Source: Ascidiella aspersa (taxonomy: Eukaryota). Taken from it: a stretch of 64,000 bases of DNA. A program made the translations under genes and the position numbers. The notes under the pieces are model-generated. The model was not told the DNA's origin. It saw only the letters and a list, made by a program, of their open reading frames with translations, and searched no databases. The stretch covers positions 7,440,001 through 7,504,000 of the forward strand of contig OZ004614.1 in assembly GCA_963924565.1 (NCBI GenBank). Reading direction: 5' to 3'. Shown here in pieces: positions 1 through 64,000 of this stretch; positions within the stretch are counted from its first letter, which is position 1, and every line of letters starts with the position of its first letter.

Positions 1-371
1 GCACATTTTATATTTTTTGAGATAATATGTCAAATGCAGTTTCTGACTTTTGGTTCAGTGCAAGAGGGAAGTAAATTCTTAATCTGGCGCTTGTTGACTG
101 CCACAAGTCCAGGAAAATTTCTTTAGAAAGGGCTTTTTCTTTGATGTGTGTCCGACAATTTATGCCTCATTAAATAGCAATACTTGTTACTTTGAAAAAA
201 AATTATTCGTCTCATCGGATACCAAATATTTTATTGAAAAAATGTCATAATAAGATGAAAAAAGATTCCAAATTAACATAAAAAAAACATAATTTTCTCT
301 GTGTTTTTCTATATTTCGCTTTAACCAAACAAACAAGATAAACACGGTATGTTAAATGTTACAAAGCTTAC

Positions 372-16000: not shown

Positions 16001-16187
16001 GTTTTTTTCTTCGTGTTGAAAACAATGTTTTTGAGTTATCCAGAATTAAACACGTAAGGACTTTACTCGCAGTTTCTCAACGTGTGCAAACGAGTTCGCT
16101 GGAGCGAAATTTTACCGGCGCGCTGGAATAATTTCTGTGTTTTTTTTTGTGTAAGGGTCGTGCAAAAAGTTTAATTATACTATATAC

Positions 16188-16719: not shown

Positions 16720-19005
16720 CTATATACAATACAACATAAGTCATTTAAATAATAAATCTTTTAGAAGTCATTTAACTAATAACTCCTTTTAGAAATATCG
16801 GTATCAATATTGCGTTTTATAATCATTAACACAAGACTACCAATTTAATTTTTGGGGTATTAATTTTCCCGGAACACCGTTTGGTAGTGTTCCCGTATTA
16901 CAGAAGTTTACAATACTATGCTAGTTTACCTGTAATATTTAAAACAGATAAAAATAGAATCCAAAAAACGTATCCGCCATAACGTATCCCATATTTCAAA
17001 TAACGTTTGCATTTAAAAGTCCCATAAAGAAAAAATTTCCTAATCCTGTATAGGCCTATCTCTAAAACTATATGACCTGGTACAGTTATTATCGCGTAGA
17101 CCGTAGAGCGTAATGCTCATGAATAACTTTGCTTTTTTACACTAAGCCGTGATGCATTGTCGAACAGCACGTTTTTAAGCCACACAAGTTTTGTTTAGAC
17201 GTTTCTTTCCTTGAGAGTAGTAGCCTACTTTATAAAGTACAGTTATATTTTCCTCATTTTTTAGGGAAAAACACAATTAAAAAAATAATTACGCGCAGTT
17301 GAACAACAATGCGTGTGAAACAAACTAATTCAAGTTGATAGCCCTGACTCCAATCGCTGGGTGGCGGCAAAGGTTAGCGTGAATGCCATCCTGCAATTTT
17401 TGCTTACAGCTCTAAATCCTGAAAAATAACTTTGCTGAGGTAAACTAACTCGAAAATCAAAACAAATATATTTAATAATCTGTGCGCGAGTTTATTCTTT
17501 AATGAAGAATATACAAATAGGACGTTATAGCAAAACCGAAATAAAAGAAATATCGAGAAAGGACAGTAAAACGTAGAACCAATTCACAAAAAATATCGTT
17601 TGCATTCAAACACACGCCATTCGGACTTTCTGCAGTACAAAGAACAGTGCAAACCATTGTAGGCAGCAAATTTGCTCAGAAAAGACTTAAACGTAGGACT
17701 AAAAAACGCAAAACAATTGTGGCGTTTTGGGGACAGGCCTCTTACTTAAAAATAACAACGAAATCGCACGTTAAAAATAAAAACTCACAGCGAAAGGAAC
17801 TGTTTTAGATTGATCTGTTTACTTTTCGGTTAAGTATTGCGCAAAGCGAAAAATTGAAACAAAATATCAAACGGCAACACCGAAAAAATTACGGACAAAA
17901 ACACAAAAATCGATTCGGAAAAAATTGTGATAAAATACAGTAGAAAGAGGAATAGAGTTCAGTTTTTGCGAGTGCGACGTTACACATTTTGCTGAACAAC
18001 CGAAAATCATAATACATAAAAAAAAATAAGGTGAAACTGTTGCGGATAAAAAATAGCTCAAAATTTCAAAGAAGTGTGTAAACAGTTTTGTACCCGCATG
18101 TAAACTGCAGTTGCTAAATCGTTTCGCCAAATTGAACTTTTATCGACCAAAAGTGCTTAAATAGTAAAATTTCCAAAAGGTTTAGGTCTTACAGCAACAA
18201 CCTGCTAGTTTCCGCAATTGGTCAACATATAGCGACTGAATAATTATAAACATCCGATGATTTTCTTACGAAGTACACGTTCCTGACATTTATCAACAGT
18301 TTATAGGTTTTGAAGGGGCCGGATGGCAAGAAAAACAAACTTTTTATTGCGCTGTCATCAGGCGGTGTAAAAACAAACAGAAAGCAGTGCAACTCTTAAA
18401 AAATTGAAACTGTCGTTGTCTAATTATCTAGTCTTTAACAAAGTTCGGCAGTTGACGGCAAAAACGTTTGTTGTAAGATTGCCGTTCGCGGTTGACGAAT
18501 TGGGTCTGCGTATGAGAAATGAAATGATGTCTATTGTATGAAATTGCCTAATAGAAAAATGAATTTTGGCGTGGAACGCTTAAGTTAGCATAATAATTAC
18601 GCAAGCATGGTCCTTTTAAAATTACTATCCATGATTTTAGGCAGCACTTTTTGGAGCTACGGAAAGGTCTCGCTTTATAAAGCGTACATCCAGTTTCTGC
18701 AAAACGACCGGAGTGAGTGCCCAAAAGTGCCGACTTAGTAAACCACCAAATTGGGTGCGACGGTAATCACTTTAACATACGACTCGGAAAGGAGTTTGTG
18801 ATTTAAATTCCAATGTATTGAACTTCCAAGTTATTGACTATATAGCGGGGATTGTTCGCACAAGTGTCATTCAAAGGACTCTTTCCCAATAGGCCTTGCC
18901 AGTACGTGTCACATTTTCTCTTATTAAAGCCAAAAAACAAAAGACTTACAGCATTTTTGCAAAGTCGACAAAAATCGCCTATGAGTGGTTATAAAAAAAA
19001 ACACT

Positions 19006-25000: not shown

Positions 25001-28000
25001 CGCGTTGAGATCGGCCGCGATAACGAGCACTGTATCGGACTTCCGATCTTTTTGCAGCTTGTCGGAGCAAGCGCTTTTGTTTGGAAAGATCACATTTTAT
25101 TTTTTATCCATCCATGACGAGACAAGATTATTTTTAGACTGCCTTTTTAGAAGATGCGATTTATTTTGGGATCAGTTGTAATGCAACACAAAGAATATCG
25201 AGTTAAAAAAAGTAAAAAAATCTAATAAATGGATTTCTCACTTTTTCTTATGTAGCGCGTTTATTGAGTAAAAGAACGAGTTTTTTCTTTAAATCATAAT
25301 TTATTTTCATAAAAATAAAATGAATTTTGGAACAGTAAATGTAAACAATTTTTTTTGTTTTATTTTTCTTGTTTTTGTGAATGATATTTGGTCCCATAAA
25401 TTTTTGGCCAAATAACGATCCACCTAAAAAACTACTATCGAAAACAGATGTTTTCGCACCTGCTTCGACGTTTGGCTGACGGGGAGACTTTTTTCCGAGT
25501 TTTTTTTTTAATACCACAATTTATTTCTATAAAAACATAAAATTTTTGGGAACAGTAAATGCAATTAGGGATTGCTCAATTTGTTTTTGTAGGTTCTCTT
25601 GTACTGTGAATATATATTTGGTCCCACATACGGCCTACAAAATTACAATTCCCGTAAAAAATTACTATAAAAAACAGACGTTTCCGCACCTGCTTCTACG
25701 CTTGGCAGACGGGGAGACTTTTTTCCGTCGCTGCTGCTGCTGGGTTTTGTGCAGAGCGAAGGCTACAGAGGCGGGGTCGCCTGCCAACTTGCTTTGCATC
25801 TGGAAAGCGAAAGAAAAGGTGTGAAATTGCGAAGCACGACGAAACGCTCTTGTCCTAATTTTCACAAAAACTTACGTGTGCCACAGTAACACAGTAATCA
25901 TATAAGGGGGTGAAATTTAGTCTAACAGTGGTTCATTACAGTTTAAGTTTTCTGCTTTATATCGGTTAAGGCTCGGTTTTGATACACAAAGCCTTTCGTT
26001 ATTATTTCACAAATAAGAAAAACTAAAGTTGCAACTTACTGTGCGTGTTTCGTGCGGATTAAAATTTTCCGAAATAACAAAGTGCGAAAGGTTCTTTTAA
26101 GGTTGAAAATCACTAATTTAAACTATTTATAAAAAAAACAGTAGGTAGGATTTTAAGCAAAGTTTATTAAAACAAGACGCAAAAGCAAATAAAAAACAAA
26201 AGCCAACAATAAAAAGGGTTACATCACAAAAACTATTAGCAGATTTGGTACTTTTGCCGTATATAGTCCGCGTATTCCTGCTGCTAAATGGTCGGGTGCC
26301 ATCTGCAAGGCATTTGCGGTGGGCGTTAGTCAAACCGCCTTGACAGTTCTGACAGGCGCAACAAACATGCGTAGGGGGTAGGGGAGGGTTTTGGCAGCAG
26401 TCAAGGGCGCTGCGGCGGCGGGTGGCATTTTTGAAACGGATGCAATTCGTTCCGAGCAAACCTCAATACGCTGGTTTAACACAAACAGTCTTTTTACGAA
26501 TTAATTGAAGTGTCTTGCCTTTTAATACAGAACGGCGATTGATTCTGTTGATTTCGAAGTGGATTCGTTCTGTTTTGTTGTTGCTCGCACAACCCGTACA
26601 AAGCAATGGCGTTTTACAGATTTTCAACAATGTTCTGTACAGTAAGTATTCCCTGTATGTTTATTAGGCCAATTGCATTGGCAGTAAACCTGATAAAGAC
26701 CGCCTTGATATGGGATGCGTCTTCGAAAAGTTGGGAGGAAAATACGCAAAAGCTAATAGAGCTGTTTAAACTCACTGATTAAGTATATGACTGTGTGTGC
26801 GTGCGTCCTGTGCGTGTATAATCTTCGAATTTGGGACAGCGTGCATATTTTCCCGCACGTGTGTTTATTCGCCGACCAAAACGAAAACTTTCGCGATTGC
26901 GTTTTACGGATTTTAAACGACTATAGAGTAAGTATTTACTGTATGTTTGTTCATAAGGCCTAAATTCTTAGTCTTAGCAATCCTGAACATTTACTGTGTG
27001 TTTATAAGGCCTAAATTCATAGTGTTAGCAATCCTGAATATTTACTGTATGTTTATAAGGCCTAAATTCATAGTGTTAGCAATCCTGAACATTTACTGTG
27101 TGTTTATAAGGCCTAAATTCTTAATGTTAGCAATACTGATAAAGAAAAAAACCCGGATAATGGATACGTCGTCAAAAAGTTGGAGGTACACGACAATAGT
27201 CAGATGTTCTGACAGATTAAGTAATTCCTGTATGTTTATAAGACCATTTGCATTGCCAGTAACACTGATGAAGCGATTTGAATAGGTCTTCGCAAAATTT
27301 GAAGGTAAAAAAAAAACAGATTAAGTATCGTGTGCGCGTGCGACGTGCGTGTATAATCACCGGATTCCAGACAACGTGCATATTATTTTTCCGCAGGTGT
27401 GTTTATTTGTCGACCGAAAACGAAAACTTTCGCAATCTTCTGGTTCTCGAAATCACGGCATGCGACCGGCGGCTTTGTATACGCAACGCCTTAACGCAAA
27501 TATACAGATCAGCACGCGATATAAGGCTTATCTGCTTTAGATGGAGCTTCGTCACTCGCTAATTTAAAACCAACCGACCCGGGGTTAATTTCTGCGACCG
27601 GCTGATAGGACACGCGTTTTAATCAAATGTCAAGCTTGTTGCCACCGCTCAGGTCATTGGTTCCCAAAGTGGGATTCGGTAAGTGTTATCAGGTGGTCTC
27701 CGATTTAAACGATCTTTGTCTAAAATTTTTTTCCCAAGTTAAATAACTGAATAAATAAAACAAGTGAACCTATCTTTTAAAATTTTCTATCTATTTGTTT
27801 ATCTTATGATTTCTTTCATTGCGCAAAATATCATTTTTATGGTAGTTTAAATTATTTTACAGAAGGGGCCGTAGGTCGATAAAAAAGTGCAAAGGGGTCC
27901 GCCATAAAAACGATTTAGAAAAGACTGAGAACCACTGACTGAGAGGAATTCCGTTTTGGCGAAGTCGAGTTCAGTTTTAATTTTGACCAAAACGTGGAAA

Positions 28001-31000
28001 AAATGAGATTCAAATCAATATTTAACGAACGGCCAAAAACAAGGATGGCAATCGAATTTGAACCATATTTTCCAGCAATACTCCTTTTGAGGTTTATACA
28101 GTACGAGCGTAAAATACAAATGCAAAATACATAAAAAATCTTAGAGGTTTTGGATGTGAATGACGTATGCGGTGACGTCACAACTGCCGGGGGCGCAGGT
28201 CGCCGACCAGGCAAGTGTCCGCGAAATTACTCGGACCGAAACGCAAGCGCCAGGAATAGCGTATGACGCGGGCCCCTGTGTATAAATATGCGGGTGCGCG
28301 TGTAAGCATTTAAATCTACCTGGATGCAGAAAAGTAACCAAGGCCCGAAGCGTCTCGTACGAAAAGAACAGCGTAAACACAAATATACAGAGAACGGCCG
28401 CTGTGTATGCGTGGCTGTTATCCCAACGGACTGAACAATAAGCTGGTTGTGGCAAGGTCGGGTGGCCGGTCAAACGTGGCCAATATTTTCTACGTGTCCG
28501 TCGTTTTTATCGGCGGGATTATCGTCGTCTCTTTGGGCGTAAATTCACGTTTAATCAGCGTAATACACAGCTGCTGTGGCTACGATCAGGTGTTATTTTA
28601 AGAACCTGGTCAGAATGTAGATTTGGGCGGCTGGGAATAATAAAAGCAAATATTTTTTGCAAATTAGTTATAGTTGCCGAATCTCAAAGAAACTAAAACT
28701 GGACTTATTTTAATCCAAGTTTCTTCACAAATTGGAAAAAAAAAATTGGACTTATTAAATCGAGTTCCTCCACAAATTAAAAAAAAATCATAATAATTCT
28801 GTGTTTCTAAAATAATTTGTTGGACTAAAAATTTGGTCTGAATTCGTTAAAACGGCCCGTCGTTTAAATAATTATTATCTAACTCGGAATTAGGTTACTT
28901 ATTCAAAATAACATTGAAAAAAAATTGGTTGCCTTGATTTCTAATACATTAAATAATAAGTAAAAAAACTGTAGGTTTAGTTTTGGGGGTTTGCCATGCA
29001 AAATTGCCTTAAATCAATTGGGTAGGTAATAAAATAGTGTAACAAATGTACGGCTAAAGACTTGACTGATATTTAAAAAGACTTTAAGTGGGTCGTTTGC
29101 AAACATGATGGCTTGAACAGGAAAAACAAAATTTGTTAAAAAAATCTAGAAAAAATGTAAAATACCATGTCTTGTACATTATTATTTTTTTATATACTGT
29201 TAACCTGACGTGGTTTATATTCAGCACGTTACGTGTTGTAACCGAAATCACAATGCACCAGGATATTAGTTAAATATTCATCGGCTACTGTGCAAAACGC
29301 AGACAAACAAGCGACTTACCGTGATCTGGGAAATGTGCTGGAGCGTCGTAAGGCCGTGCTGGCAGTTGGGGTCGAATAGGGTGGTCGTTGGCGCCGGGGG
29401 TGCAGGGCTGGGGGTGGCGGCGTGATGGGGCGCCACGTAGTGGAGGTGGCGTAGCAGGAGGTTGGGCGACAAGTAGTCGCCACCGGAGGGCAGCAGATGC
29501 GCCTGGGCTTCTTGAGGTAAAACGGGAAGAATCTAAAGGGAGAACGTGAAAAAATGATTAGTGTCTCGATTTGTTTTGCCGCTTAGGGGGACTTCGATCA
29601 CAGGATGGAGATTTCCACGCTAATAATCTCATACGGTAGTGGTGGAAAATTCTATTTAATAAGTTTGGTTTAGGTGGCTTTTACCACGCTTTTAGGATCA
29701 CAGGCTGGAGATTTCCACGCTGTAAATCTTATGTTGGTGGAATTTAATTTTTTACCAATTTGCAACCCAAGGTAGATTATTACAATCTCTAAATTTTACA
29801 GTGATGGCATATAGTTTAGTTGAATGTAGAACTGGTGTGACCGAGTCAAGTGGTCGAATCTTACTGCTGGCTTGGCTGCAGAAACATCCTTAATTTTATT
29901 CAGACATTCTATTACAAGGCTCCATGCAGTGTAGGCAAAAACCGTGTTTAGATTTACGGACAAAATTCTATCTTATAAACATATTTCCTTTAGGTTCTGT
30001 TCTAAATCAGAACTTACTATTTGTTTTTGTTTAATTATAAGATTCTATCCATAGACCTGGTGCCAAACGACCGATGGAATTGAGTTGTTTGTTTTGTACT
30101 GTGGCTCACACACATTGGTAAGAGGCCCTAAAATAGTGACCGTGGGCGGTTTGAATTATTTACCAGCAGCCATTTTAACTGTGCGGACTGAGGTGACACG
30201 TATATAGAATTTTAAACTAGGTCCTTGCGCCGTAAGCTCCAGGTAAAAATGATAGGGAAAACATATATATGTATATCTGGGAGAAATAGCGAACGTCATG
30301 AAAAGATATTGTGGTAACGCTTTAATTAAATCCTGGTTTGTGTTTCAGATGTTTACTCGTGTGTTTATATTTCCTTTTTTTTAGTTTTAAAGTAAAGTGG
30401 TTAACTCGTGCGGTAGACAGATTTCGATAGTTCTGCCTTTCTTACCACAAAAGTCTCGAAAAACAAAATCTTTGAAAACAATATCTTAAGTTCAACATTT
30501 GCATAACATACGGATATAGGACAAAGAGCAACGGATCAGCTCCCAGGCGTATTTATAACTGTTCGTTGTTATTACAGTGGCCATTATGCTGGCCCGAAGC
30601 GTCTCAGTATCATCCTACGTAAATGCTCCGGTCTTCCTGCGATATTTAAATAGCTCGTGGTCGCGCTATTTTGAATCGAGAGCCTCGTATATGCTCATCA
30701 GGACAGACAACAGTCGGCCAGTTTGCATAAGCCCCTTTACAATCGGCAACCTTTTCCTGGACTCTATAGGCATTAACGTCGGAATACAACACAGTTCGAA
30801 ATAAGAAAAAGATCAGCCCAAAACCAAAACCTTATAGTCGTAATATTGTCTAAATCGGAAAGTCCTAAACCCATTTTGGTCATTTAGGCCTTATCTAAAT
30901 AAATTTAAGACTTATTCCCACAGGTTTATGTCTTATTCGATCGATTAAGTTCTTAATCTGTCGTGGATATTAGTGCGTATTTGGCTTTATTATGTCGTTG

Positions 31001-34000
31001 GTATTAAAGTATACTTTTTATAGATTTCTTTGCTTTAGATATTGTTGCTTTTCAAGTCTTGTTGTGCGTTCCTCCATTTTTCCTACCTTGTTTGGGTGCT
31101 ATTTTTGTACGTTGTGCTGCTTGAATTTTTGTGGGTATTTTTACGTTTAAAGCGGCTAACCCGAAGACCGCGAAAAAAGGGCTAAAGAATATGGTATGCG
31201 ATTAAAGTCTTGCGCAATCTAAAGCTACTATGTAAATGTGAACATCGTTTGTCGTGTCTACTTTTAAACCAAATTCAACCTACGCTAATCAAGTATAGCA
31301 ATATGCAAATGCAACTTGATACAAAAAGGTGTTTCAAAGAGCAACGGAAAAACATTCAGGATGGCTATAAAGGTCACGTTTTATATACAACTACCGCAAG
31401 TCCTATATCACAACCTTTTTAGAGAAATCTGCAGGCCAATATAGTTTTGAGGGTGTGATTTTTGGGACGACAGCTTTTCGTTTGGGCAAGCCTACAAGTA
31501 TTTCACCACACGACACGCTTAAGTCATAATATCCTATTTTTAAAACCACTGGGTAACTGCTTTAAAACTCAAAAAACAATAAATTATATTTAAATGAAAA
31601 GCTTGATCGGTAATAATCAATAGTCCCGTCTCCCGCGCACAGTCGCTACTTTTTAACAGGCGACCTTTTTAAATAAACTTTAGTTTTATATCAGGGGTTA
31701 AATTATGAAAGAGTTTGAGAAGCACTGCATTATTTTTTAGTTTATATAAAAGGGCGTATCTTAATGAAGTCCACTACTTGTCGAAAAAAATAAATAAATG
31801 TCTGATCCTAATTTTTAACTCGGGAATTTTAAACATTTAGTTTAATTGTTTTCAGGTATAATTTGCAATACTGTATTTTTCGAACAGGCCAAATTTCGCT
31901 ACAGCGATTTCGGCGCTCACCTGCTGGGGGGCGGCAGCGGGGTGCAACATCACGTGGCCAGCGGCGCCGGTGGGTGACACGATCATCTGGGGCTGGTGGG
32001 GCTGTCCCGACAGGACGGGGTGAAGCAGCTGTTGCTGGGGCTTTCCCACTGACGAAACGTCGTGATGATACGTCAAGGCTGGCGGGTAGAAGGCAGGCAG
32101 CCAAATAGTGGAGGCGAGCTGTCGGGAAAAGAAAATATTTCAATTAGGCCTTCATGTTCATAAGCCCCTAAAAGTAAGGTTCAATAACGAAGAAGACACG
32201 ACCATGATCTAGTCAATTGTTTCGATGGTTATATAAATGCGAGAGGGATGTCAATACTTTTATTTTAATCTGATACCCCATAGTTTATAATTCCAGAGAA
32301 AAGTATACAACAGTCTGATCTAATAAAAAGTTACGTCATTACTATGACTATATATAGGCAAAATTTGTCTACTTGTAAAGTGCAATGGTAATTATATGCA
32401 TTCTTAAGGTTAGTAAACTCGAATTTGCTGTTTCATTAGGAAAATTTTGCCTTAAATTTTTTTGATTGAAAATTCACCTTTCAAAAACAAAACAAAAAAT
32501 ACGTTCGCCAACCAAGGCTAAAAACTTCACAATTTCATTTGGTGTCGAATTGGCAGCGATTCTACCCGAGTATTGCATGATTAGGACACTATCACTTAAT
32601 ATCAGGCACCGGCTTCGATATTTTAAGACATCCCTATATTTCTGTTATCTGGAAAAAGGTCCGGAAAAACAGCTTACGTATCATTTGGTCAAAAAGCAGC
32701 TTCAGAAGGGTTAGATCACAGTTGTTGACATACACATATGTGTTATTGTGTGTGCATGTTTAATTAAATAATCATAAGGTACTGTAGATCCCCTTCAATG
32801 TGAAGTTGCTTATACCAACAGAATGTAGGAAATCGTCAGGCGTACAGGTGCACGGAGGTGGCCCGTCAATGAAACACGATAAAGCAAACCAAAACCAGGG
32901 GATTACGGCTTCCTACATGCGATCCCATCCAGATTGCACCGCTTTACTGGCGCTCAAGGCCTACAGTTTCTCCCTTCCGTAATGCTGTCGATGTAAGGCT
33001 CCCAACAAACTGCCGAGTTTCATAACGGCGGTTATCGCTCGCGGCTCTGGCGTGTTTATTGACACCCAAACTTTGGCCGTCACGTTGAGCGGCCGTTTAA
33101 GGAGCTTATACCGAGATTCGCCCGGGGATTTTGCCAGCGGAGAAAGTGCGCAGCGATCACGGTGCTTCGATTTGTTTAAACGCGCCAACCGCCGCCGTAT
33201 GTTTACCTTCAGTGCTCCGGTTTATAAAAAGGGCGTCGTGTGTTGCTAAACATTTTGATGCAGCGCCTTCCAAGAAAATCAGTCGGGATTTCAAAGAGAC
33301 GTGCTGTTTTCAAACCTTGACGTTTGTTACCTGTTCTTTTAATTTAAAACAGGGCACAGCCCCTGCTTACACGGCGAACCCCAGGAATAAGGCATTATAA
33401 TTAAATCATCGTTAATAACTGTAGCGTACAATTTTTAGCATCTTTTAACGCTACATTGTAAAATGAAAATCATTTCACAAAACAGTCCATTTCTCACGAC
33501 ATTTTAAAACGTCGTAAAGTGCCGTGCGCGTGGGTCAAGCAAAATTACCATGTTCTAATCTCCGCCAGCCACGTACTTTCAAAAAATCATCGTTAGCCGT
33601 CAACACCTCTTACCACCCATTACCCAACGCTAACCCATAAGGGCAAACCGGTGCCAAAACAGCGGCGCTCACCTGTCGATACCAGAACGACCGACGTTAG
33701 AAAGACCCATGATAATAGATTCTCTCTCTACGGCTTTAAATGTTATTTGGGCTATTTAGATTTTATTTCGATTCAGACTTATTCCGAAATGTTTGGACTA
33801 CGGCGTGTTTCGTTTTCATTATGTTGTTGGTCATAATGTTGGGTATTACATAATACTACTTTGGGTATTGTTGCTTTATAAATCTTACTGTGTGTTCCTA
33901 TACTTGGCATCACACAGCTCTATACAAGTGGGTTCACGAAGAAAAAACCTTTAGCGTTCTATTCTTGTTTCCACGTCGCCGGCTGGCCGATTTCGCACCG

Positions 34001-48964: not shown

Positions 48965-49947
48965 TATACAGAAAAAGCGTGCAAAACGTATTATGACAAA
49001 GCGCTGAAATTCGCCACTGCTAAAACCGAAAGACATCTGTGGGTTTTAACAAAGTGGGCTATTTATCTCGATTAAAATGCTGCATAAGGCTGCTTGCTCG
49101 TATTGAGTGTAATAAAGCAATGCTTTCCGAAAGAAGGGATGCATCTAAAAATGTTGTACTTCTTGCTCCTTTGGATACACACATGTTAAAACTAAAACAA
49201 GACTAAGAACTGAACTGCGCACATTATTTGAGGAATCACGTACAGAGGCAAAAAACGCATTATGTTCTGTTTATAAGTCCCATACATGTATAGGGTCGCG
49301 GACAGGTTTAATAAGCAATAGGGACGAGGAAGTGAAAAGTTTTGAAAGACCTTTGTTAAAGGATCGAAACAAGTTTCCATCATGCAACTTCTTACTAAGC
49401 TTAAGCGGCCTGCTGCAAAAGGAAATGAACTCTGTCTCCTGTCTCATTGACCCACGATGGTTTCAATATCACACTGTGTTCAAACGACACTATAAGATTA
49501 TAACTCTAGCACGATAAGATTATAGCCTAATATCCACTTCAAGGCTTCGACAAAACGCATTACGATTCAACTCGTTTTGTTTGCACTTTTATCCAATGTA
49601 AATTATTCAAAAAATAAAAAACAAATTGACATGAGTGTATTAATATTACAGTCGTTCATCGAACTACCACATACATAACTGTTGTAGTCTCGAACGCCGA
49701 CAGCTGTCCATCAAACGAATATCGACACAAAGCGCCGAAAGAAAGAGGCTCAAAATCGACAAATGTATACAATACAGTCACAGAGGGCAAGTTTTCATTG
49801 CCGCTTCAAAAACAGCCGACGCTCTATTATTTTTCGTCCTTTTGTGTCAGTTGACTTTGATGCACCGATAAAAAGAATATGGTATAAACATATGAACAAC
49901 GGAAGCTTTAGCTTCAAGAGGTAGCCGTAACTGGATAATGTAATTGA

Positions 49948-50478
49948 CAGTGTTGTAAGGATCTAAGTCATTGACTTGACTTGTGTACACTTAAGTCACT
50001 GTTTTCAAATGACTTGACCTGACTTAAATCTGTTAAGCAAAATGACTTGAATTAACTTAAATCTGTTAAGCAAAATGACTTGAATTGACTTAAATCTGTT
50101 AAGCAAAATGACTTGACTTAAATCTGTTAAGCAAAATGACTTGAATTGACTTAAGACTTTTGGACAAATGGCCAAGTATTTTGGACAAATGAAACTTTTT
50201 TTTTATTGCTTTTTTTTTATTTGCTGTATATTGCATTTGTTTATTTTTTGTTTTTTTTAGATGTATTATTGCCCATAATCATACAAGTTCATGCCAATTT
50301 TACATATTTTACAGTTTACTTTTGTGTCAATCATGACTTGAAATTGACTTTCTCTCATAATGACTTGACTGGGGCTTGACTTGGTAGTATTGCAAAAGAC
50401 TTGACTGGGACTGAAGTTATTTTTTAAATGACTTGACTTGGACTTTAGTCATTTCAAAATGACTTGTTTGCAATACTG
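49948..50478. mobile_element. Family A MITE with internal ~32-bp tandem expansion
   Basis: TIR CAGTGTTGTAA / TTGCAATACTG; TSD GTAATTGA/GTAATTGG; ACTTAAATCTGTTAAGCAAAATGACTTGA repeated 4 times at ~50022-50150. Confidence 0.88.
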
Positions 50479-51055
50479 GTAATTGGTTTAGCTTCCGTGA
50501 CTTTATCATTGACCACATCGGTTTTAATAACAGAGAGGTGCTTCCACTTTTAAAAACCTTAACGCCCTAACAATTTTCAGTTAAATAGTCGCACTTAATC
50601 TCACAAAGATAATAATCAATACATTTTTTGACTGACTGACTTTTTTAAAGTAAGAAACCTCATATTGGGTTTTAAAGCTATTACACAGAACCTAGCAACT
50701 TAAGTCCCCAATGAGTCATAAAGAGAGCGAAATGATATAATTCCGATAGCTTTGGATATATTGATTTTATCTTTCACCAACATTGGTTCACATCGCGGGG
50801 GATTTACCAGCTTCGGGATCCGGACAGAATACTTTTTAGCCTAAAAATCCATAGCCACTGTTCGAGTCAACATTAAGACTTAATAAAGGAAAACAAAAAT
50901 GCAATTGAAATATTACTCGGTCCATCCTCAACACCCATGGCGCAATTTGAAACGCGTTTCGGCCGCATTTGTTTAAAATAAGCACAGACTAGACGACAAA
51001 TCAAACTAACAGTTACCAGCACTATTGTTGACAATTCGTTTTGAAATGACTTCAG

Positions 51056-51475
51056 CACCGGTCAAGTCATTTGTAAAATAACTTGAATCAAAGTCGAGTC
51101 TTTTCAAAAAGTTAAGTCCAAACCCAAGTACCAGTTGCCCAAATCAAGTAAAGTCATTATTAGAGCCAGTCAAGTCAAGACATTAATATAAAAATAAAAC
51201 GTTGAACTATTAAAATTAATAAACTAAACCGATTATGGGTAAAAACCTAACTAAAAAATAACAAAAACACAAATAGAAAGATGGTTTTATGTACAAAAAT
51301 TAGATTTAAACGTAGAAATATTGAGATAAACACCCCATTTTTATAAAAAAACTTTAAAAAACACTTATTTTAACCAAAAAACTGGCCGAATGATTTCAGT
51401 CCAAAGCTGGTCATTTAAAAACGGTGAATTTAGTGCACTTAAACGGAGTCATTGGCTTAAGTCATTTCAACACTG
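51056..51475. mobile_element. Family A MITE, diverged, opposite orientation to the 49948 copy
   Basis: AAGTCA repeats colinear with the 16188 copy; right end TTTCAACACTG. Confidence 0.7.
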
Positions 51476-53414: not shown

Positions 53415-53768
53415 TAGTGTTGTAATTATTTAAGTCATTTACTTGATTTAAGTGCACTTAAGTCACTGTTTTAAATGACTTGACTTAACTTAACTTAAGT
53501 CCTTTGGAATTTGGATAAATGGATTAAATTAAGTGTTTTTTTATTAAAATTTATCTCAAGGTTGCACATTAAACACTTTTATAGATGGTAGCGTTTATGC
53601 TATTTTTAGTTGTTGCCCATAATTAATCGGACGAGTTTTCCAAGTTTAATAGTTCAACAGTATATTTTTATACCAATGATATAATTTCAAATTGACTTGC
53701 TCTCATTATAACTTGACTGGGACTAGACTGGGACTTCGTCATTTCAAACTTACTTGTTTACAACACTG
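53415..53768. mobile_element. Family A MITE, internally deleted
   Basis: TAGTGTTGTAA / TTACAACACTG with perfect 8-bp TSD CCATTCCA. Confidence 0.88.
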
Positions 53769-53904
53769 CCATTCCACGCAATTTTATCCCTGAATAATAC
53801 AGAGATTACCCATTTGTTTGCGCAATTCAACATTGACTTGATTGAGAATTAAGAGGCTTACGCACGCATACGTATTCATTAAATTGTGATAACGGGGTTG
53901 TATG

Positions 53905-54414
53905 CAGAATTGGACAACTAGATTTATTTTAGCTTTTTAAAATTAGATTAGAATTAAAATTAGAGCATTTTAGTTTTTCTAAATTAGATAAGAATTAGAT
54001 TGTTTTAAGTTTTTTCAAATTAGATTAGAATTAGAATTCCTAAAAAAACAAATTTCAACTAAAATTTGAACTAGAATCACATACAACCAATTTAATTGAA
54101 TCGCAAAGCATTCTTATAAGAATGGGAATGGTAAATATGTGTGTGCTAATTTTTAAGCCTTTTGATTCTATTTAGACAGTAAAAATTACATACAACTCGT
54201 TCCAACCAAAGAGTTTTAATTGAAATTCTGTGTTTCAACTGAGTGACTAAAAATGCCGTTGGACAAAGTAGCAGTTTTCGAAAAATCCGAATTAGATTAG
54301 AACTAGAATTAGAGCACACAGGCAATTCATAAATTAGATTAGAATTAGAATTAGCCGCATTTTGCTCTAATTCAATGATTTAGAAAACTAGAATTATTTA
54401 GTTGTCCAAGTCTG
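53905..54414. mobile_element. Family B MITE, inverted relative to the 21141 copy
   Basis: TIR CAGAATTGGACAACTA / TAGTTGTCCAAGTCTG; perfect TSD GTTGTATG; end-to-end similarity to the reverse complement of 21141-21626. Confidence 0.9.
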
Positions 54415-54675
54415 GTTGTATGTTATGGCTCAGGATTATACTGGCGATATCTTTACCTATAGAGTACTAGATAATGATGGTCAAGACAGGTAAAGTTATA
54501 ACCAATTTGTACAACGCTAACGCTGTAATATTGTAACTATTGCTAAACGCTTTCGCATAAAAAGACAAGGGAGTCAATCTCCCAAAATTAAACGTTGTTT
54601 TACAATGGAAAATTTTACGGGAGCGAAACACAATGGCTTTGCAAAAACACAACCGGTGGCAGTTTTTATGATTTA

Positions 54676-55085
54676 AAGTGTTGTAAACAAGTCATTTTTA
54701 AATTACTCGAGTCCCAGTCAAGTCACTTGAAAAATAACTTAGGTCCAAGTGAAGTCTTTTGGAAAAATAAAGTCAAGACCCAGTCCAAGTCATCGGTCGC
54801 CCAAGTTAAGTCCCAGAAGTTAGTGTGAGAGCAAGTCAATTTCAAGTTATTTCATTGACATAAAAGTAAACTGTTAAACTATTAAAATTGGCAAACTCGT
54901 TCGATTATGAGCAAGAATTCAACTAAAAAATGACACAAATGTAATATACAGCAATAAAGGTGTTTTTTAAAGTCAAGTTAATTTGTCCAAATAATATTGT
55001 TATTTTGGTCAAAGGCTTAAGTCACGTCAAGTAATTTGAAAACAGTGACTTAAGTAAGTCAATGACTTTAGTCAATACAACATTG
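54676..55085. mobile_element. Family A MITE, diverged
   Basis: AAGTGTTGTAAACAAGTCA ... ATACAACATTG, colinear with the 16188 copy; no clear TSD. Confidence 0.78.
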
Positions 55086-56358
55086 ATATTCAATCATTTT
55101 TGGATTAGTACGGGAGAAAATTTGTTCGAAGCCACAGCGTCCATATAGGTCGCGGGCAAATCTGGCCAATCGCTGTAAAAATCCAAGTCAATTTCGGGCC
55201 CAAATTCGATAACGCGTTTCGAAAACAAAGGTCGTCGTGAATAATGCACGGACTACCATGTGTCGGCTTTCGGCACCGGATTATCGTCTCGAACACGGCA
55301 CTAACTGGACCTGGTACTTGCATCGGCAGGGAAACCAAGTAAACGTGTGTTATCGCCAATGCTTCGACGCCCCTGTACTGCTGCTGTCTTGAGCGAAATT
55401 TTATCGAAAAAAGAATCGTTTTGAATTATTCATTGCTTCGCCGCCGGACTGTCGAGCCGCAACACCTACAAAGAACCGGATGAAATTTGATTTGCTGTTG
55501 GTTGTGTGGTGCCTAAATGCGAGACTCGATTGTGGAGGTTGATTTTCGGTTTTGAAACCTTATTGAGTCCCAGGAATTCGCGGCTGAAAAACGTCGCAAA
55601 AGAATGGGGTTTCTGTTTTCGTTGTTTTCATCATGGGCAGTGTAATACTGTACGAGTTCACATTTCTTGTGGAATCCGATATGGAAAAATTGAATGCTTT
55701 TAACGAGTAGATTACTGAGAAAAAAATATGTCAGCCACATTGTGTGAAGATTATTTTTTTTTTGGTGGGCGACATAATTTGGTGATTTCTGTTGATAGCT
55801 GTATTCGTCTAATTCTAAATATGAAAATCAGGTGGCACTGTTGAACGACAAATAGTGTTGTATATTTGACAAGCTTTCGCACAATCGTGCTTCATCAGGT
55901 TAGTTAGAGTATGAGTTCTTAAATAAATGCTTTTATAACACAATTAATAGTTCATCATTGCTGAATAATTTCAATAATTTACTGAGAAACAGTTAACCGC
56001 AGCCGAAATGGCTTAAACAGGGGTACGAAAAATAAAAAGGCCAAGTTTTTTTAGAGCCTGCTCCATGGCGTGCAAATACAAATTGCCGAAACGAAACCCG
56101 AAGGAGGGGCTTTATAAAAAGCTCCGTCGCGTGTCAAAATCACCGCTCCATCAAAAGCGAGCAAATCTGGTGTTGTCTTTGCGCATCGACCATCGCTCTG
56201 GGATATTTCGATTTTGTCTCTCTAATGTACGAAGCTTTACCTTCGCAGCAGCCCTGTGACTCGGCCCAAAATTGCAAACTAATCTGTGTGCAAACAGCGG
56301 GCCGGTGCTATTAGACACAATCGCCTGTATCCCTTGGGTCCTCACGTGTACTGTATAT

Positions 56359-56845
56359 CTGTGTTGTAAGACTGAAGTCTTAAATGCACTTAAGTCACTT
56401 TTTCAAATGACTTGACTTTACTTCAGTCTTTTGGGCAAAATGACTTGACTTGACTTAAGTCCTTCCGACTAATGACTTGACTTAAATCTTTGGGACAAAT
56501 GACTTGGGTAAAAATGATGTATTTTCTTTAAGCATTTTGGGTAAAAAACTAAGCTATCTATCCAAATTTTTGCATCTAAAACAATTTGCCTGCTATATCT
56601 TGCCATTTTTTGTGTTTTTTAATTTAGTTACTGTTTATAATCGTACGGCTTTAATCATTCCAATTGTTTAACGTTTCTTTTTTATAACAACGACGTGACT
56701 TGAAATTGACTTGTTCAAATTAAGACTTGACTTGGACTACCGATGACTTACTGGGACTTGACTTGCTATTTATTCAAAAAGACTTGACATTGACTTAAGT
56801 TATTTTACAAATGACTTGACTTTGACTTAAGTCGTTTTAAAATGG
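56359..56845. mobile_element. Family A MITE, right end truncated
   Basis: CTGTGTTGTAA start followed by GACTT repeat blocks matching the reverse complement of the 16188 copy. Confidence 0.78.
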
Positions 56846-59800
56846 TCAGAAAAGAGTTGTTTTTGTTGTTGTACGTCTTCGTGCAAATATTTATCTGAAA
56901 AACTGTACTGTATTACGCTATATTAGCACCAAATTCCATTTACTACGCCAATTTAAGGAAAAATGGCTTCTTAAGTCAAATACTTAGTTAAAAAACTACT
57001 TCAGTCCATATTAATTTTGTAATTATTTTTTTTTATAAACAAAAACAATAATAGGTCAAGATTAGTGAGTTTGTTTTAATATTTATAGGCTAACATTAGT
57101 GATATAGCACATGAGAATATAACAGAACAATCTTGCTCAAAACATGATTTGTGGCAGCTTTACAAATCTTTATAGTCGATTATCTCCGAAGTTGTATTTT
57201 GTGAATTAAGCAGTTTTTAAACTCAGATCTTCAATTACCTTTAGACTTTTTTTTACAAAAAATATTTGGTCGTGGCTGCTGTCTGTCTTCTCCGTTAATT
57301 ACGTAAATCTATACTTTTACTAACTAATTTTTTTCAATTGTATGTCCAACTTTTTTGTAGTCAAAAAGAGTTTGTTGCGAATTAGCACACTTTCGACGAA
57401 ACAACCTTTCTAAAAATTGTAAACTAGAAACTCTTGAGAGTGATCGACGCATACAGAAAAAAAGCTAATACCAGTTTTTAGTATACTTGTACTCGTATTG
57501 GTCTTTCAGCTTCCTTATCACCTAAGCAGGATTTCGCCTGGCAAAACAAAACCTGTGTTCTCTTTCATAGTAAACCTACAGATGCCGCTACGAAAGCATT
57601 TTAAGGTTTACTCTCGTTATCATTCAATTTCTGATCTTACATTCAATACTTTGGAGATATTAAAAGATGAACTTTCGAGCTGCTTGCTTCCCTTAGATTT
57701 GATCGGACGCACACACATAAATTTCCACCATAAATTTAATACGTTATTTAATAAAACGTATATTTTTAAACGCAAAACTTTTAACGCAAAATCGGCATAA
57801 GAGCAACACATCGCCCATAGTATATCGCTCTCGTATGTATACCTGCAAAACGCCACTTTTGAGTACTCGAGCGTGTCGAAATCAATGGGCCACCACGCCT
57901 GACAAAATCTTGGGCTTAACCGCTAAGAGAAACACCGGCAAAACGACAAAATAATTCCTATGCTTCGGTCTGCCGCGAATTCGCTCCGAATCGATTTGTC
58001 ATCGCGGAAGCGTGCCATTCGGTTGCCGCTTCTCGCGAAAATTGCGAGTTCCTGTCGACAGTTTTTCACACCGGATCGGTCCTGCCGCTCTTAATAATTG
58101 ACGATAGAAAATAGGGGCGCGGGGAAAGGCGAACGGGGCGAAAATGATCGACGGCCTGTCATAAGAGGGGTGAAAAAAGCGAGACGGCCTTCTCTTTTTT
58201 CTTTGTTGCGTTTTGGACCGGTTTCACGGCCGGTCGTCGGACACGACGTTGTCATGTTTTATTCATTCGTGTTGCGCGTCCCCGGAACCGAGACAAACGA
58301 GGCGTATATACGAGCGCCTGGCCAATTGATGGTATACATATAACACGGTCATATAGCCATGGCCCTTTAGCGCGTCCGTTGAAATTGAAAAAGACATTCC
58401 GGACATCGTGAGTCAAACTGAATGGAGAAAAGACACGCATTTGAAAGGCAATCAAGGCTGCTTGTCGCTTTAGCGGTTATCGCACTATTCGACATGCGCC
58501 CTTATTTAACTCGATTGCCTTCGATTTTCGATTTGCCGCCATATATCTCCATTTATGCTTTTTCATTCCGGCTAATAGACGCGGACGAACAACAAAATCA
58601 TATCCACGCCGGTCGATAAAATCGATTTGCAACCAAAAATGAATCGTTAAAAACACGCGTCCAAAGCGCATTCTAATACATACGCGAGTTTGCCATAAAA
58701 AGATTCAGCAAATCCATTTCGTTTTTTAGTGTATGGTAACCGATTGGGGTTCTGATCATTCACTACAATCGTTATACGTTTCTTATTTTCAAGCTGTCTT
58801 ATAACTTTACCCAATGAGATCAATTTTTCGCGTAATTAAAAAATCAGGAACAAACACTCAAATAAACGTAATAATAAACTAATTCACGGTAAAAAAAAAT
58901 GCACATATCGGTACGAGAACTTTCTGTCAAAGTTTATATGCAAAACAAAAGTTGTCTAATTAAATAGGTAAATAAACTGTATGTAATCTACAAAATAATT
59001 TTCAATTCATTAGGCTTATTGCTGTATCTTAGGTATAAAACATCGGTTATTGATTGGTTGGCAAAATCATAAAAAATCGATTGTCGGTGACGGTAAAATA
59101 TATATCGGTCAATCTTTATACCTGAGGTGAGCAGCGCGAAGTGATCCACTATCTTGTTATAGTTAACAAGCTGCCTTAACCACCTGCAAAACGCCAATTA
59201 ATAACAAAATGTGCTGCATTATGTTAATTTGCTACTTTCCAAAATTACTGTAAGAAAAGGTATCTAAGGAAACGGCAGTTACAGTTGAACCAGTATAAAA
59301 AGCGACCGCTCAACATACTACATTTTCGTTTTTTGCAGTGTTCCAAAATTACTGCAAGAAAAGGTATCTAAGCAAGGTCACAGTTAAGGCAGTACAAATA
59401 GCGGCCTCCCAACATAATCATACTGCTCTCGTAACGGAAGCCACCGGTGCGATATAGCGCTAAGCACTTGACAATCGAAGAACGTCGGAATTCCGCAGAA
59501 AACGACTGCGTTCACCATCTAAGAGCCTCAACTCGACTGCCATTCCAAAGCCTGGCCACAGAAGCGCCCGTCAATAAATATTTCCTTGCGCGTGATATCT
59601 TTACGGCCTCTCGACCTGACCAAAGCCTCAGTCTAATCGTGGCTCAAGCCCCACTCGACTCAAACAACACCTCCCCCTCTCAAGTTTATGATTCGCCCTT
59701 AAGCCTTACCACTTATGATGGAAGGCGGTGCGGCTGTTTGAATTGCAGAAGCAACACTCCTCCAATATTGGCCCTCGCGTCACTATAGAGAGTTTTTTTT

Positions 59801-60023
59801 TCCGACTATTCATCGCCGATTGTCTCAGGCGAATGGGAAGTATACAATAGTGAAGCTGAGGAATGATCAATATCCGACAGAGAGATCCCTCCCATTGATC
59901 GAATGCAAACTTTAAGTTAACCTTAGCATTTATATTGTGCGAAAGTTTAAAATTTGCGCACCCATTAAAAAAATCTGTTTAACAACAAAAGGGTCAAAAA
60001 GTCATTGAAAGCCAAAGATTTCC

Positions 60024-60234
60024 GGCGATGGTCTAGAATCCTACCACATTTTCGCGCGGGGTTTGTATTTCTAACAATATTGGGGTTCGGGTGAGAGTTA
60101 GCGTTTGGGTTTGGGTGGGTAAAGTATTATTATTACATTTATTCTTACATATTTATGCCTTCCTTGCTATTTCAACTTGGACAACTCGTTTAGTTACTGT
60201 TAAAATAAATGTGGTAGGATTCTAAACCAGCGCC
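60024..60234. mobile_element. GG-terminal MITE; related partial copies at 7860-8058, 15310-15535, 37755-37870, 61790-61820
   Basis: TIR GGCGATGGTCTAGAATCCTACCACATTT / AAATGTGGTAGGATTCTAAACCAGCGCC. It shares the TACTTGACCCACCC..AACGCTAAC core with the other copies. Confidence 0.75.
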
Positions 60235-61399
60235 CCTACCATTTTTATAAATAAGTGCTTTCCTCTTTTATCAATCAGTGCTTTTCTTTTTTTTAAATCA
60301 GTGCTTTTCCTACTTCTTACTAAAATCAGTGCCTTGCATCAACTATTTTTCTGCAAAGTCATCGCTTGCTCAGGATTTGCACCGTCTGGTTTATTTACTC
60401 TAAGCTTTCTGGCAAGCAAGTCGTCGTAATTATAATGCTCGTGAGGCGAAGTAAGACCACACAGGCACAATCCCGTACAGCGCTGTGCAGTTCAATTACG
60501 CCGCGGTTTCTGTGGGAAACTCTCACGACGGCTAATTAACTTCGCCCCTTGCAGGAGTCTAGCGCGCGCAATCTGGCTGCTATACGCCGTTACACTTGCT
60601 CGCTTATGCATTTTTTATCGTGCCAATTTGCCTGGAACTGATGGAAGGCGTTGCTAACTGAAAATGGCAAGTTATCGCGCAACACATATCGCAATCCGGT
60701 CTTTTGAAATCGCGCCAAGAGCACCTGTGTTGAAAGCCTGCAAACATTATAGCTGACTTAATGCTGCTTTACAACGTGAGTTGCCTAAATTCGGTGTCTT
60801 TGTTTGGACACATTACAAGTTTTGGGGTCAGAACTCAGAACTGAGAGTTATACAAAAAAAATGTGAGTTTACTTTACAAGCTGGGGACCATAAAAATAAT
60901 GTAGGTTGTGTAATTAGTAATTACAATCTGGGAACCATAAAAGTAATGTATATGTTGTGTAATTAGTGTCAAAATATAAGCCCTAGTATAGCGTTTCGGT
61001 AAAATAATTTTGCAGCGGCCCGGTACCCGTAAGAAAAAGGTTATTTTCACCTGTCCACCTCAACACCTCATTAAATGTATTTAGCCTATTTCCAGTTGCA
61101 TATCTGCACGAAATCGAACGAAAACTTCAGGTTTCCAAAGGTTACTTGTTTTAAACGTCCCGGTACGACGTAACTTTGTGACGTCATCCATAAAAAAATT
61201 CTAGCGTTCTGATGGTAAAATTATTTTAATTCCACCCCTGGTTACAGCTAACATTTGATTCAATTGGCTTAGCTTTAGTTTTAAACAACCTCACAACTAT
61301 CCTAAATAACGATCGAGTTTATGCTAGATACAAATGTTTTAATAAATATGCTGTTGCTACCAGGCATAGTATATTTCAAATAGGTTCGTCATGTATTTC

Positions 61400-61450
61400 G
61401 TCAACCAACGTTTCGGCTTACTATACGGCAAGCCTTCGTCAGGGACTGAC
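61400..61450 (-). ncRNA. Minimal type I hammerhead ribozyme-like motif (Penelope-like element type)
   Basis: Minus strand reads GUCAGUCC-CUGACGA-A-GGCUUGC-CGUAUA-GUAAGCC-GAAA-CG-UU-GGUUGAC: core CUGANGA and GAAA, 7-bp stem II, palindromic ACGU stem III, UH triplet, and stem I with one bulge. Confidence 0.65.
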
Positions 61451-63139
61451 ACACATAGCCAACAAGACGCAAAATAAAATGACACAAAGAAAAAAGAAAG
61501 AAATATATGCCAGACGAACCTATTTCAAATATATACTAATGTTTTGTTGTCAAAACATTACAGAGAAAACTAATTGTGAAACGTAAATACACTCAAGATT
61601 TCACATCCCTTAAAATACGCCTTATTAATATTGACGACCTATATAGTTTGGGCTACCAATGTAAGCAGTTACCCATACACGCTTTTCCATACACTTCCGA
61701 TTAAAGCCTATCGTGATCCCTCAGTAAATCTATCAATCACGCACATGAAAAGGATTAGCCTGTCAGAACGGAGGTTGCTGTCCGCTGGTAAAGGTAAGAA
61801 ACTTCTAGACCAGCGCCGCCATCTTTAATATTGAACTACAATGTCATGTTTATGCTATATTTACCCGATGGACAGACACTAAAATAATCAACTACATAAC
61901 TCAGCTTAACGATCAGATACATTGCTGATTTTATTTCAACTAAATCTGGTAATCCTGTAACGCAAAAGATTCTGTTACGACGTGCACTAGGCGGTCAGTT
62001 TTAGCCTTCAGTACAAACAGTCCAGGCAAACCAATTGGAGCAGCTTGCACACGACTGGTAGATGCCTAATCTCGCATTTTCTATTGGCGGAAAAACCTTC
62101 TATTGGTGAAAGCGCTCTTGTTACGTAACAAGAAGCCCACTGCTATGTCGAAATCGGGATGAATTCAAAGTCTTTCGTCTCTTTGTGTGACGCATAATAC
62201 CAGTCCAGGTACAACAAAAGAATGGCTGATTATCGAAAGGCTAACATTTTTGAGGGCATTTTCTCGTTTTTGTGTCATCGACTCCTGACAACAACACAAT
62301 AACTACGGTAATTCGACTTTTTAGTGAAAACTAAAAAGTCTTGTCCAACCTGCGCAGAATAGTTGATGGTTTGGTGAGACTAAAAGTTAAGTGAAGAACG
62401 TTTTCTATAATGAAGAAATGTAGTTATTAGGCCTGCTTAATCCTTAATGACCAACAAGTGATTACTTTCATGCTAAACTGCACTTATATAAATATATTTA
62501 GGGCAGCGATCGAAACATATACTGGTCGCCATCTGCAATCTGACAGTCTCCATTTTAAATCCGTTAATAAAGTTTTATTACTTGCAATGTATAGGCTATA
62601 GGTACCTATAGTAGTCACACAGACAAAGGAATAAGAGTGCCTGGCCAAGACTATTGAATTATAGGCCTATCGATGCATAAAACTTATAGTGGAAAATAAT
62701 CAATTTATACGTTACAATTTTTTGATTTTTTACACCCGCCTTTTAAAATATTGTAAATGTTGCACTTAGGTTTAAAAGCCCGCCCGCCAAGTATAACACA
62801 CTTAAAACACGAAGGTTTACCCAAATATTTAGTTTGCCCTCGAAAAGTTACGCTTAGCGTAAACGGATTTAATCTTAAGCAAATGATACACACTGGACTG
62901 AATTCTAGACGCGATATAGGCTCAGTTAAAACAAATGGCTCATAAGCCGATTCACAGTATCAGCCTTGCTATACATTATTTATTATATATACCACGATGT
63001 CACGCTTTACATTAACCATCTCGCGGGTTTATGTTTTCGCACAGGTTTACACAAACGCCCATTTAAAAAATGCGCTAGTCAGTGTTTTCTAGGGAAACAC
63101 ACAATAAGAACTAAAAAGTAATAATACCTAAAAATCTAT

Positions 63140-63700
63140 TAAAAAATTAGTATTAAGACCAACGACATATTAAAGCCAAATACGCAGAAACATCCAGTAC
63201 AGAATAAGATCTAAATCGTCTGAATAAGACCGAAATCTGTCGTAATAAGGCCTAAATTTATCGGAATAAGTCTTAAATTCGTCGGAATAAGGCCTAAATT
63301 CATCTGAAAAAGGCCTAAATGGCCAAAAAAACGCCGGGTACCTGAAGGTAGACGGTATGGAACGATCGTGTGCCGTCGGTCTGGAATTGGCCGTTTTGTT
63401 GTCGACATTGAGATGCCCTAGTTTGACCGGCGTCGTTAGGGCGCCGCTGTTTTGGCACCGGGTTTTTGGCCCTGTTTGGGGTTATTGGTGGGTAAAGGAT
63501 GGGGTTGGAAAGTGGGTTAGGGTTGAAATTATTAGGGGAGTTATTAGTGTACTTTGGAGGGAGGTTTGGTGTTAGGTAACGTGTTGTTTAGGCCTGATTT
63601 TGACCATTTAGGTCTTATTCTGTCGGTTTTAGGACTTACTCCGATTTAGACGGTTGTGCGACTTTTATGTATTAGTCCTATTTTTGTTCTATTCCGAACT
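63140..63700. mobile_element. Foldback-like repeat with 21-bp subterminal repeats; related pieces at 30795-30950 and 33590-33810
   Basis: AATAAGGCCTAAAT-type 21-mers on the left mirrored by ATTTAGGTCTTATT on the right. Core GCGCCGCTGTTTTGGCACCGG is the exact reverse complement of ~33648-33668. Confidence 0.65.
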
Positions 63701-64000
63701 GTGTTTCATTATCACGATGATATTGTTCTAATTTAGGTTGATATTGTTCTAATCTTGGAGTCCTTTTGTAGGTCATGTGCTAAAAAATTTTATTAGCCAA
63801 TTTGGTTTTGGTAAAAACTTTTTTACCGATGACAGCAAAGTTTTAAATAGTTAACCAACGATAAGTATCTATCCAAATTAATTTGTACATTTTCGTCATG
63901 CTTTGCAAACTATAACTCAGCGTTTTTCACTTTAAAATATATTTTGTTAGAAAAAATGGGATTAAACAAATCTAATTTTGTTAGGTTTTTAGTTTAAAAA

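Follow-up and report, generated by a model that had tools for sequence, protein, structure and literature searches.

What is the short hammerhead-bearing repeat that lies near the end of a 64,000-nt stretch of the Ascidiella aspersa genome (contig OZ004614.1, positions 7,440,001 to 7,504,000, forward strand; 'the window' hereafter), and is its ribozyme still of any use? A preliminary description had proposed an intact hammerhead on the minus strand, carried by a small inverted-repeat element of a non-autonomous family. The ribozyme is present exactly as placed (61400-61450), from stem I through CUGACGA and the 7-bp stem II to the returning strand of stem I, whereas the element around it is of another nature. 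In all likelihood, the 197-bp insertion derives from the 3' end of a coding Penelope-like retrotransposon (PLE), 5'-truncated and in part inverted, and the hammerhead is this element's standard minimal ribozyme, predicted to be a weak cutter, active only as a dimer, and likely idle here. The locus is ordinary mobile DNA: the broken-off short end of a common PLE with hundreds of copies in this genome.

Anatomy and family of the stub

The insertion is composed of two arms lying head-to-head inside an 8-bp target duplication (Table 1). Its boundary is supported by the loose ends of family copies, in RNA as well as DNA reads, which pile up at 61341-61343, and no 8-nt match to the flanking AATGTTTT was found in 44 flanks of other insertions. 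The duplication is shorter than the family mode of 13 nt. The direct arm is 91-93% identical to its seven closest copies among those retrieved, and in longer copies the same sequence sits after the stop of a GIY-YIG domain. Its tail is the start of the element's ORF: in one copy (L118), the tail sequence runs on into an ORF start 57% like that of a sister family (L088). The inverted arm begins 5 nt past the predicted cut and stops immediately short of the tail. Since it retains family bases that are changed or lost in the direct arm, the direct-arm changes are private to the window copy.

Table 1. Features of the insertion, in window positions
Feature	Positions	Strand	Basis or remark
Whole insertion, two-armed PLE stub, 197 bp	61341..61537	.	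alignment with the family; target duplication
Target-site duplication, left copy, AATGTTTT on +	61333..61340	.	8 bp
Target-site duplication, right copy, AATGTTTT on +	61538..61545	.	8 bp
Direct arm: 5'-truncated pseudo-LTR, ribozyme and tail	61341..61496	-	starts 90 nt upstream of the predicted cut
Tail, 27 nt, first nine ORF codons (MPGSNSIFI)	61341..61367	-	continuation into ORF start in L118
Inverted arm, 40 nt copied from the 3' part of the pseudo-LTR, without tail	61498..61537	+	family sequence match
Minimal type I hammerhead	61400..61450	-	fold and covariation across families
Stem I, 5' strand, GUCAGUCC	61443..61450	-	sequence
Core CUGACGA (61442-61436) and unpaired A (61435) between positions 9 and 10.1	61435..61442	-	trait described in PMC4209133
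Stem II GGCUUGC/GUAAGCC, 7 bp, with 6-nt loop 2	61415..61434	-	fold, covariation
GAAACGUU: core G12-A15.1, ACGU palindrome (stem III only in dimer), GUU cleavage triplet	61407..61414	-	predicted cut 61407/61406
GAAA; ACGU palindrome; U17	61414-61411; 61411-61408; 61407	-	shared A at 61411
Stem I, 3' strand, GGUUGAC, 7 bp with one bulged U	61400..61406	-	last C private to window copy

Part of this geometry had been recognized from the start. An inverted repeat is present at 61367-61390 and 61513-61538, as described, but the right arm is in fact longer, spanning 61498-61537, and 27 nt of the element lie beyond the left arm, hence the repeat is not terminal. Could the arms of 24-26 nt nevertheless be the terminal inverted repeats of a MITE-like DNA element? 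The inverted repeat is real, and a 186-nt stretch of the stub folds as a long hairpin (z -5.5). However, besides the 27-nt extension past one arm, the length of the inverted arm ranges from about 30 to more than 1000 nt depending on the copy, the arm is missing at 33 of 75 sites, and the duplications measure 8-16 nt with variable sequence. These variable arm lengths and duplications rule out a MITE, to which we attach practically no probability. The inverted arm of a PLE stub can thus pass for terminal repeats.

The two arms also share a peculiarity. At 61373-61381 and 61524-61532, both are altered at one position of the family's TTTTAAAT (G versus C), so that both read ATTTGAAAT on the minus strand, and the direct arm has in addition lost 4 nt and carries an A-to-C substitution through which GACGAA occurs twice. 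Our guess is that template slips between or within the arms lie behind these changes.

The stub belongs to a high-copy retroelement family tied to a GIY-YIG and RT frame, as the preliminary description had anticipated. A 221-nt query in the same genome gave 712 first-look candidates, 40 of which were scored; the 33-nt core with stem II has 157 exact genome copies and the relaxed core pattern 807, the reversed control yielding 0 in both cases. Family copies share their 3' end and break off on the 5' side. An RT plus GIY-YIG frame is found about 140 nt upstream of the same end repeat and ribozyme in L029 (where the GIY-YIG stop lies about 140 nt before the ribozyme), L032/L067 and L062/L068. The open frame of L032/L067, although 5'-truncated, is the longest found for the stub's family at 555 aa, and L034/L036 carry the DKG motif of the RT. 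A single ORF with a PLE-type RT (DKG, YVDD) and, at its C terminus, a GIY-YIG with CCHH is present in L032/L067 and L034/L036 and absent from the window copy. Pfam recognizes the RT at E 0.0012 and the GIY-YIG at E 0.042, both under the curated cut-offs; the NCBIfam search with the family protein gave only weak RT matches, and the PDB sequence search gave no match. The same protein has 1213 homologues at E <= 1e-50 among the 7993 scored, the best at 49% identity.

Which PLE lineage is involved? No cysteine cluster separates thumb and EN in L032, that is, there is no Zn-finger-like linker; such an RT-EN linker is given as a mark of Neptune and Nematis in PMC8557442. By the criteria of that source, the domain order and the missing cysteine-rich linker point to the Penelope/Poseidon type, as judged from sequence. 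With EN+ Penelope/Poseidon elements such as Adineta Pen2a, as described in PMC3846280 and PMC8557442, the family shares a single ORF with RT followed by C-terminal GIY-YIG, 5' truncation, an inverted 5'-truncated copy, a tail overlapping the ORF start at one end and a short target duplication. The differences are a tail of 27 nt here and of 30-40 nt there, the 13-nt mode of the duplications, and the lack of any coding part beyond the tail in the window copy.

No intact full-length or partial-tandem source copy of the stub's family appeared among the best-scored matches, so that present-day mobilization might depend on a sister family or an allele outside this assembly. A related lineage at 47% identity is represented by an intact-looking element (L330, G000:C3:7034000-7040500), in which an 815-aa frame lies between two end repeats whose ribozymes are 2633 nt from each other; its ribozyme has no extra A and a bulged stem II. 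A more distant PLE family, at 34% RT identity, has a tandem period of 2671 nt and frames of 816-843 aa (L329, G000:C9:23484000-23493999; L332, G000:C3:10335500-10340500). L332 presents a hammerhead-like motif (first box UUGAAAA, with GAAACGUC) that overlaps the start codon and occurs once before and once after the ORF. We also observed, beside family stubs (L047 and L048, G000:C6, near 1.94 and 1.40 Mb), two similar frames of 234-240 aa ending in a nucleotidyltransferase-like motif (GSLAR..ITPYSDFE), which may represent a duplicated host or mobile gene.

The link to a coding element bears directly on the supposed non-autonomous family. Could the short copies form a self-standing family, retrozyme or SINE-like, that uses PLE enzymes and whose ribozyme processes its own unit RNA? 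Short copies do outnumber coding ones (the 712 end candidates of the first look compare with 41 matches to the endonuclease piece), and retrozymes have been argued to derive from pseudo-LTRs (bioRxiv 10.64898/2026.07.22.740005). Non-LTR animal retrozymes, as presented in that work and in PMC7229834, are likewise short, non-coding and PLE-related and carry a type I hammerhead. They are, however, head-to-tail units of 150-450 bp, each with a canonical ribozyme, and form circular RNA, whereas the stub is a single head-to-head insertion with one minimal ribozyme. The window holds one motif, and no short tandem or head-to-tail array of the retrozyme kind occurs among the family loci examined. The ribozyme is of the minimal PLE type, and not of the canonical type I with loop 1-loop 2 contacts and a short helix III described for retrozymes (PMC7229834). 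Finally, the 5' ends of the copies spread continuously into the coding frame: truncated at all lengths, the copies comprise from about 30 nt to more than 1.8 kb of one coding element. A self-standing family is thus very unlikely, and we consider the stub a truncated end of the coding PLE.

A minimal hammerhead and its conservation

As had been suggested, the motif is one of the minimal type I hammerheads of PLE kind, whose stem III is palindromic. It presents the CUGANGA...GAAA...UH core in type I topology, a 7-bp helix II that G10.1-C11.1 closes, one nucleotide left unpaired after A9, and, in a monomer without stem III, a palindrome at 15.2-16.2. The former reading of the 3' half as 'GAAA / ACGU / UU' had the right site and counted one A and one U twice; the segment reads GAA-ACGU-U (GAAACGUU), and the cut predicted at 61407/61406 stands. 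GUU is a weaker cleavage triplet than GUC. With the minimal hammerheads of metazoan PLE pseudo-LTRs described by Cervera and De la Pena (2014, PMC4209133), the motif shares type I topology, a helix II of 7-8 bp, a short helix I, a single nucleotide that stays unpaired between 9 and 10.1, the G10.1-C11.1 pair and the palindrome at 15.2-16.2. The extra A after CUGANGA that had caught the attention is therefore real, and is the rule among these ribozymes rather than a defect (PMC4209133). According to the same source, such motifs are, as here, mostly single ones from truncated elements, with some pairs on opposite strands, and show no activity as monomers and low activity as dimers; dimer cleavage is reviewed in PMC6765202. 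Relative to the motifs in PMC4209133, only the sequence family differs, with GUU as triplet here and GUC and GUA in sister families, and activity is here a prediction. Our literature search, whose coverage left out most subscription journals, found no paper on PLE hammerheads in ascidians.

Taken alone, the core pattern says little: its loose form was found once in the window for 0.68 expected, which is not significant. The fold of the surrounding 71-nt stretch has a z of -3.8, matched by none of 200 shuffles. In the monomer, a fold other than the hammerhead has the lowest energy: there, CUGACG is paired to CGUUGG (-24.1 kcal/mol), and the fold with an unpaired core (-20.8) is 3.3 kcal/mol costlier, likewise in three other copies tested. 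The Rfam scan that had been proposed as a check returned no hammerhead match at E <= 10 in 58000-64000; Rfam misses PLE minimal hammerheads of this kind.

Is the structure under selection? Sister families identified by protein similarity keep the extra A as well as ACGU while their stems have changed. Among 16 aligned representatives, 85% of cells pair and 8 of the 11 pairs change on both sides; the covariation score is reached in 0 of 500 shuffles, and slid controls pair at 23-48%. Eight of the representatives came from a pattern that dictates the core and three pairs of stem II, and the whole set is related, which inflates the significance of the shuffle test, and we take between-family covariation as support from sequence comparison, not as a probability. 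ACGU is present in 16 of 16, imposed by the search pattern for eight of them. The pattern did not require the extra A, and the sister families retrieved with the protein have it as well; L330 deviates.

The covariation expected in stems I and II holds between families and not within the family. Likewise, the core, which had been expected to be conserved above background, is no better kept than its surroundings in the 32 arms at least 94% identical to L029 (5/416 mismatches in the core, 38/1856 in its neighbors, Fisher p 0.32). This is what would be expected because the copies are dead, and family copies decay without selection on the core.

We observed separately that loop 2 (columns 27-31 of alignment A1) is conserved across PLE families beyond what pairing needs, with an invariant A and a nearly invariant G..A. 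This conservation may reflect a protein or tertiary contact.

Could this particular copy have been co-opted to cut a host transcript on the minus strand? All its core positions are intact, and the two changes private to it both add G-C pairs to the extended stem I; these could be read as selection, yet they lie within chance expectation. Its right junction is bridged in contigs from three runs of two studies, so that the insertion is not private to one assembly, although one run may be the assembly source. On the other hand, intact cores are common among neutral copies, the monomer favors an inactive fold, and stem III has no partner: no second ribozyme motif occurs in the 64-kb window, and the next 10 kb contain one loose core match, on the other strand and unrelated-looking. 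Pfam, applied to 109 window frames of at least 80 aa and 17 frames of the next 10 kb, recognized only ribophorin II exons; no recognized exon lies within 49 kb to the left, at a frame length that short exons would escape, and the next 10 kb yield one sub-threshold match only.

About 6% of one RNA run, assigned by species label and used without strand counts, gave 110 reads on 60900-62000, of which 108 fit only partly, and no read on the flanks adjoining the stub on either side. On L067, 126 reads give a depth that reaches 43 in the end repeat and stays mostly at 0-3 along the ORF, which suggests that family reads come from stubs inside other transcripts. In the same fraction of the run, no read-end pile-up was seen on the window stub or L067, which tests self-cleavage weakly, and no back-joint of a circular RNA was listed. 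We find co-option hardly credible. The locus itself is of little weight, one among several hundred dead ends of a known class.

Several other elements populate the window. The ribophorin II exons are located at 8722-12028 on the minus strand (Pfam PF23861, PF23860 and PF25147). A dispersed repeat family with GACTTAAGTC / GACTTGACTT subrepeats in both orientations occupies 2855-3278, 16176-16731, 49936-51267 and 53416-56846, and is likely a MITE or Helitron-type element. Another high-copy short repeat, of the GTGACGTCA type, lies at 61122-61232, 110 nt left of the stub, and coincides with a read-depth peak. Short tandem arrays of 51-nt and 21-nt units, at 26944-27139 and 63213-63320, have AAGGCCTAAAT in common, and the array at 63 kb has an inverted relative at 30874-31020.

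Two-armed insertions and the one-tail rule

How did a stub with two opposed arms arise? We sampled insertions by an internal pattern, taking the first 100 of 292 matches for the stub's own family, and 30 loci plus 20 chosen regions for each of two sisters, family C (168 matches, regions not strictly consecutive) and family D (267 matches). Loci that proved to be second arms of one insertion (6, 6 and 7 by family) were dropped, as was one duplicate. Two-armed sites numbered 42 of 75 in the own family, 26 of 44 in family C and 21 of 43 in family D. The tail is found on exactly one of the two arms in 42/42, 26/26 and 17/21 of these, or 85 of 89 overall, a rule that fits insertion from two primers. 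Target duplications of at least 7 nt, with a mode of 13, flank 40 of 43 own-family pairs as against 43 of 215 in a mismatched control; the sister families have them in 24 of 26 (C) and 20 of 21 (D).

A tail frequently at one end only was noted in PMC8557442, and in PMC3846280 the inverted form is put down to self-priming on a template of antisense RNA or DNA sense, an alternative origin of the inverted arm that is compatible with our data. From the one-tail rule we infer, as the simplest reading, two cDNAs, one per start site, which were primed on opposite strands and whose inner ends were then joined. Our literature search returned no relevant account of twin priming in PLEs. Inner junctions of two-armed insertions (L166, L253, L300 and L307) often display short templated repeats, as after microhomology-type repair.

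A close counterpart with biochemical data is PAc, the Poseidon element of the lizard Anolis carolinensis (Frangieh et al. 2024, PMC11167929). As reported there, its protein cuts the two target strands at AT-rich sites and extends both, reverse transcription starts at two adjacent sites bounding the tail, the protein assists the ribozyme, and uncut RNA is the main template. Our family shares with PAc an end-repeat ribozyme, a tail bounded by two 3' end positions and AT-rich targets. The ORF start is inside stem II in PAc and its tail lies about 110 nt into the ORF, whereas our family's ORF begins about 40-48 nt beyond the cut site, with the tail as its first nine codons.

In a scenario of this type, the element's protein would have made staggered cuts in both strands of an AT-rich target; a cDNA would have been primed from each of the RT start sites bounding the tail, giving one arm with and one without it; both cDNAs would have halted early, after 156 and 40 nt, and repair would have joined them head-to-head. 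The long arm runs across the cut site, hence it was copied from RNA that was uncut at this point (or religated). In the parent element, two ribozymes in tandem end repeats would pair ACGU with ACGU to form stem III, and the dimer would cut after GUU, likely aided by the element's protein. Selection on the ribozyme structure would have acted in such mobile lineages and not on this stub. The near-strict one-tail rule joins the in vitro two-start-site data from the lizard element to inverted genomic insertions.

Arm ends near the predicted cut

Do the insertions retain a trace of ribozyme cleavage? In the internal-pattern sample, 32 tail arms end 0..19 nt after the predicted cut, with 8 at -20..-1 and 3 at 20..39, and both arms are short together in 24 cases for 10.9 by chance, in a sample that cannot contain insertions with two very short arms. 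The inverted arm of the window copy itself stops at +5 from the predicted scissile bond. We also picked arms by their tail, obtaining 99 from the first 100 of 262 matches in the own family and 29 from the first 30 of 104 in family C. The own-family set, which is mixed with sister-family copies, has 28 arms at 0..19 and 12 and 11 in the flanking bins (n=99, p 0.017 and 0.009), and 11 arms form another bump at -60..-51; the corresponding counts in family C, 6, 4 and 1 of 29, are not significant.

This peak is no proof of cleavage, and we rejected it as such: it is weaker in the tail-picked sample, few arms start at the cut itself, 51 of the 99 tail-picked arms cross the cut site, and many short arm pairs are joined in a self-complementary AATATATATT stretch. 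Run-off from cut RNA followed by trimming, stalling of the enzyme at the ribozyme fold, transcription start at this point and microhomology are candidate sources of the excess, among which we favor microhomology and stalling. That the stubs record the full mechanism, with two cDNAs primed at the tail ends and an excess of arm ends left by RT run-off from RNA cut in vivo by the minimal hammerhead, seems doubtful to us. Our literature search, in which most subscription journals were outside coverage, returned no paper on truncation points at the ribozyme site. If true, however, this reading would provide genomic evidence for germ-line cleavage by the minimal hammerheads of PLEs, and the excess of arm ends behind the cut offers a cheap, genome-only way to ask about ribozyme cutting in vivo.
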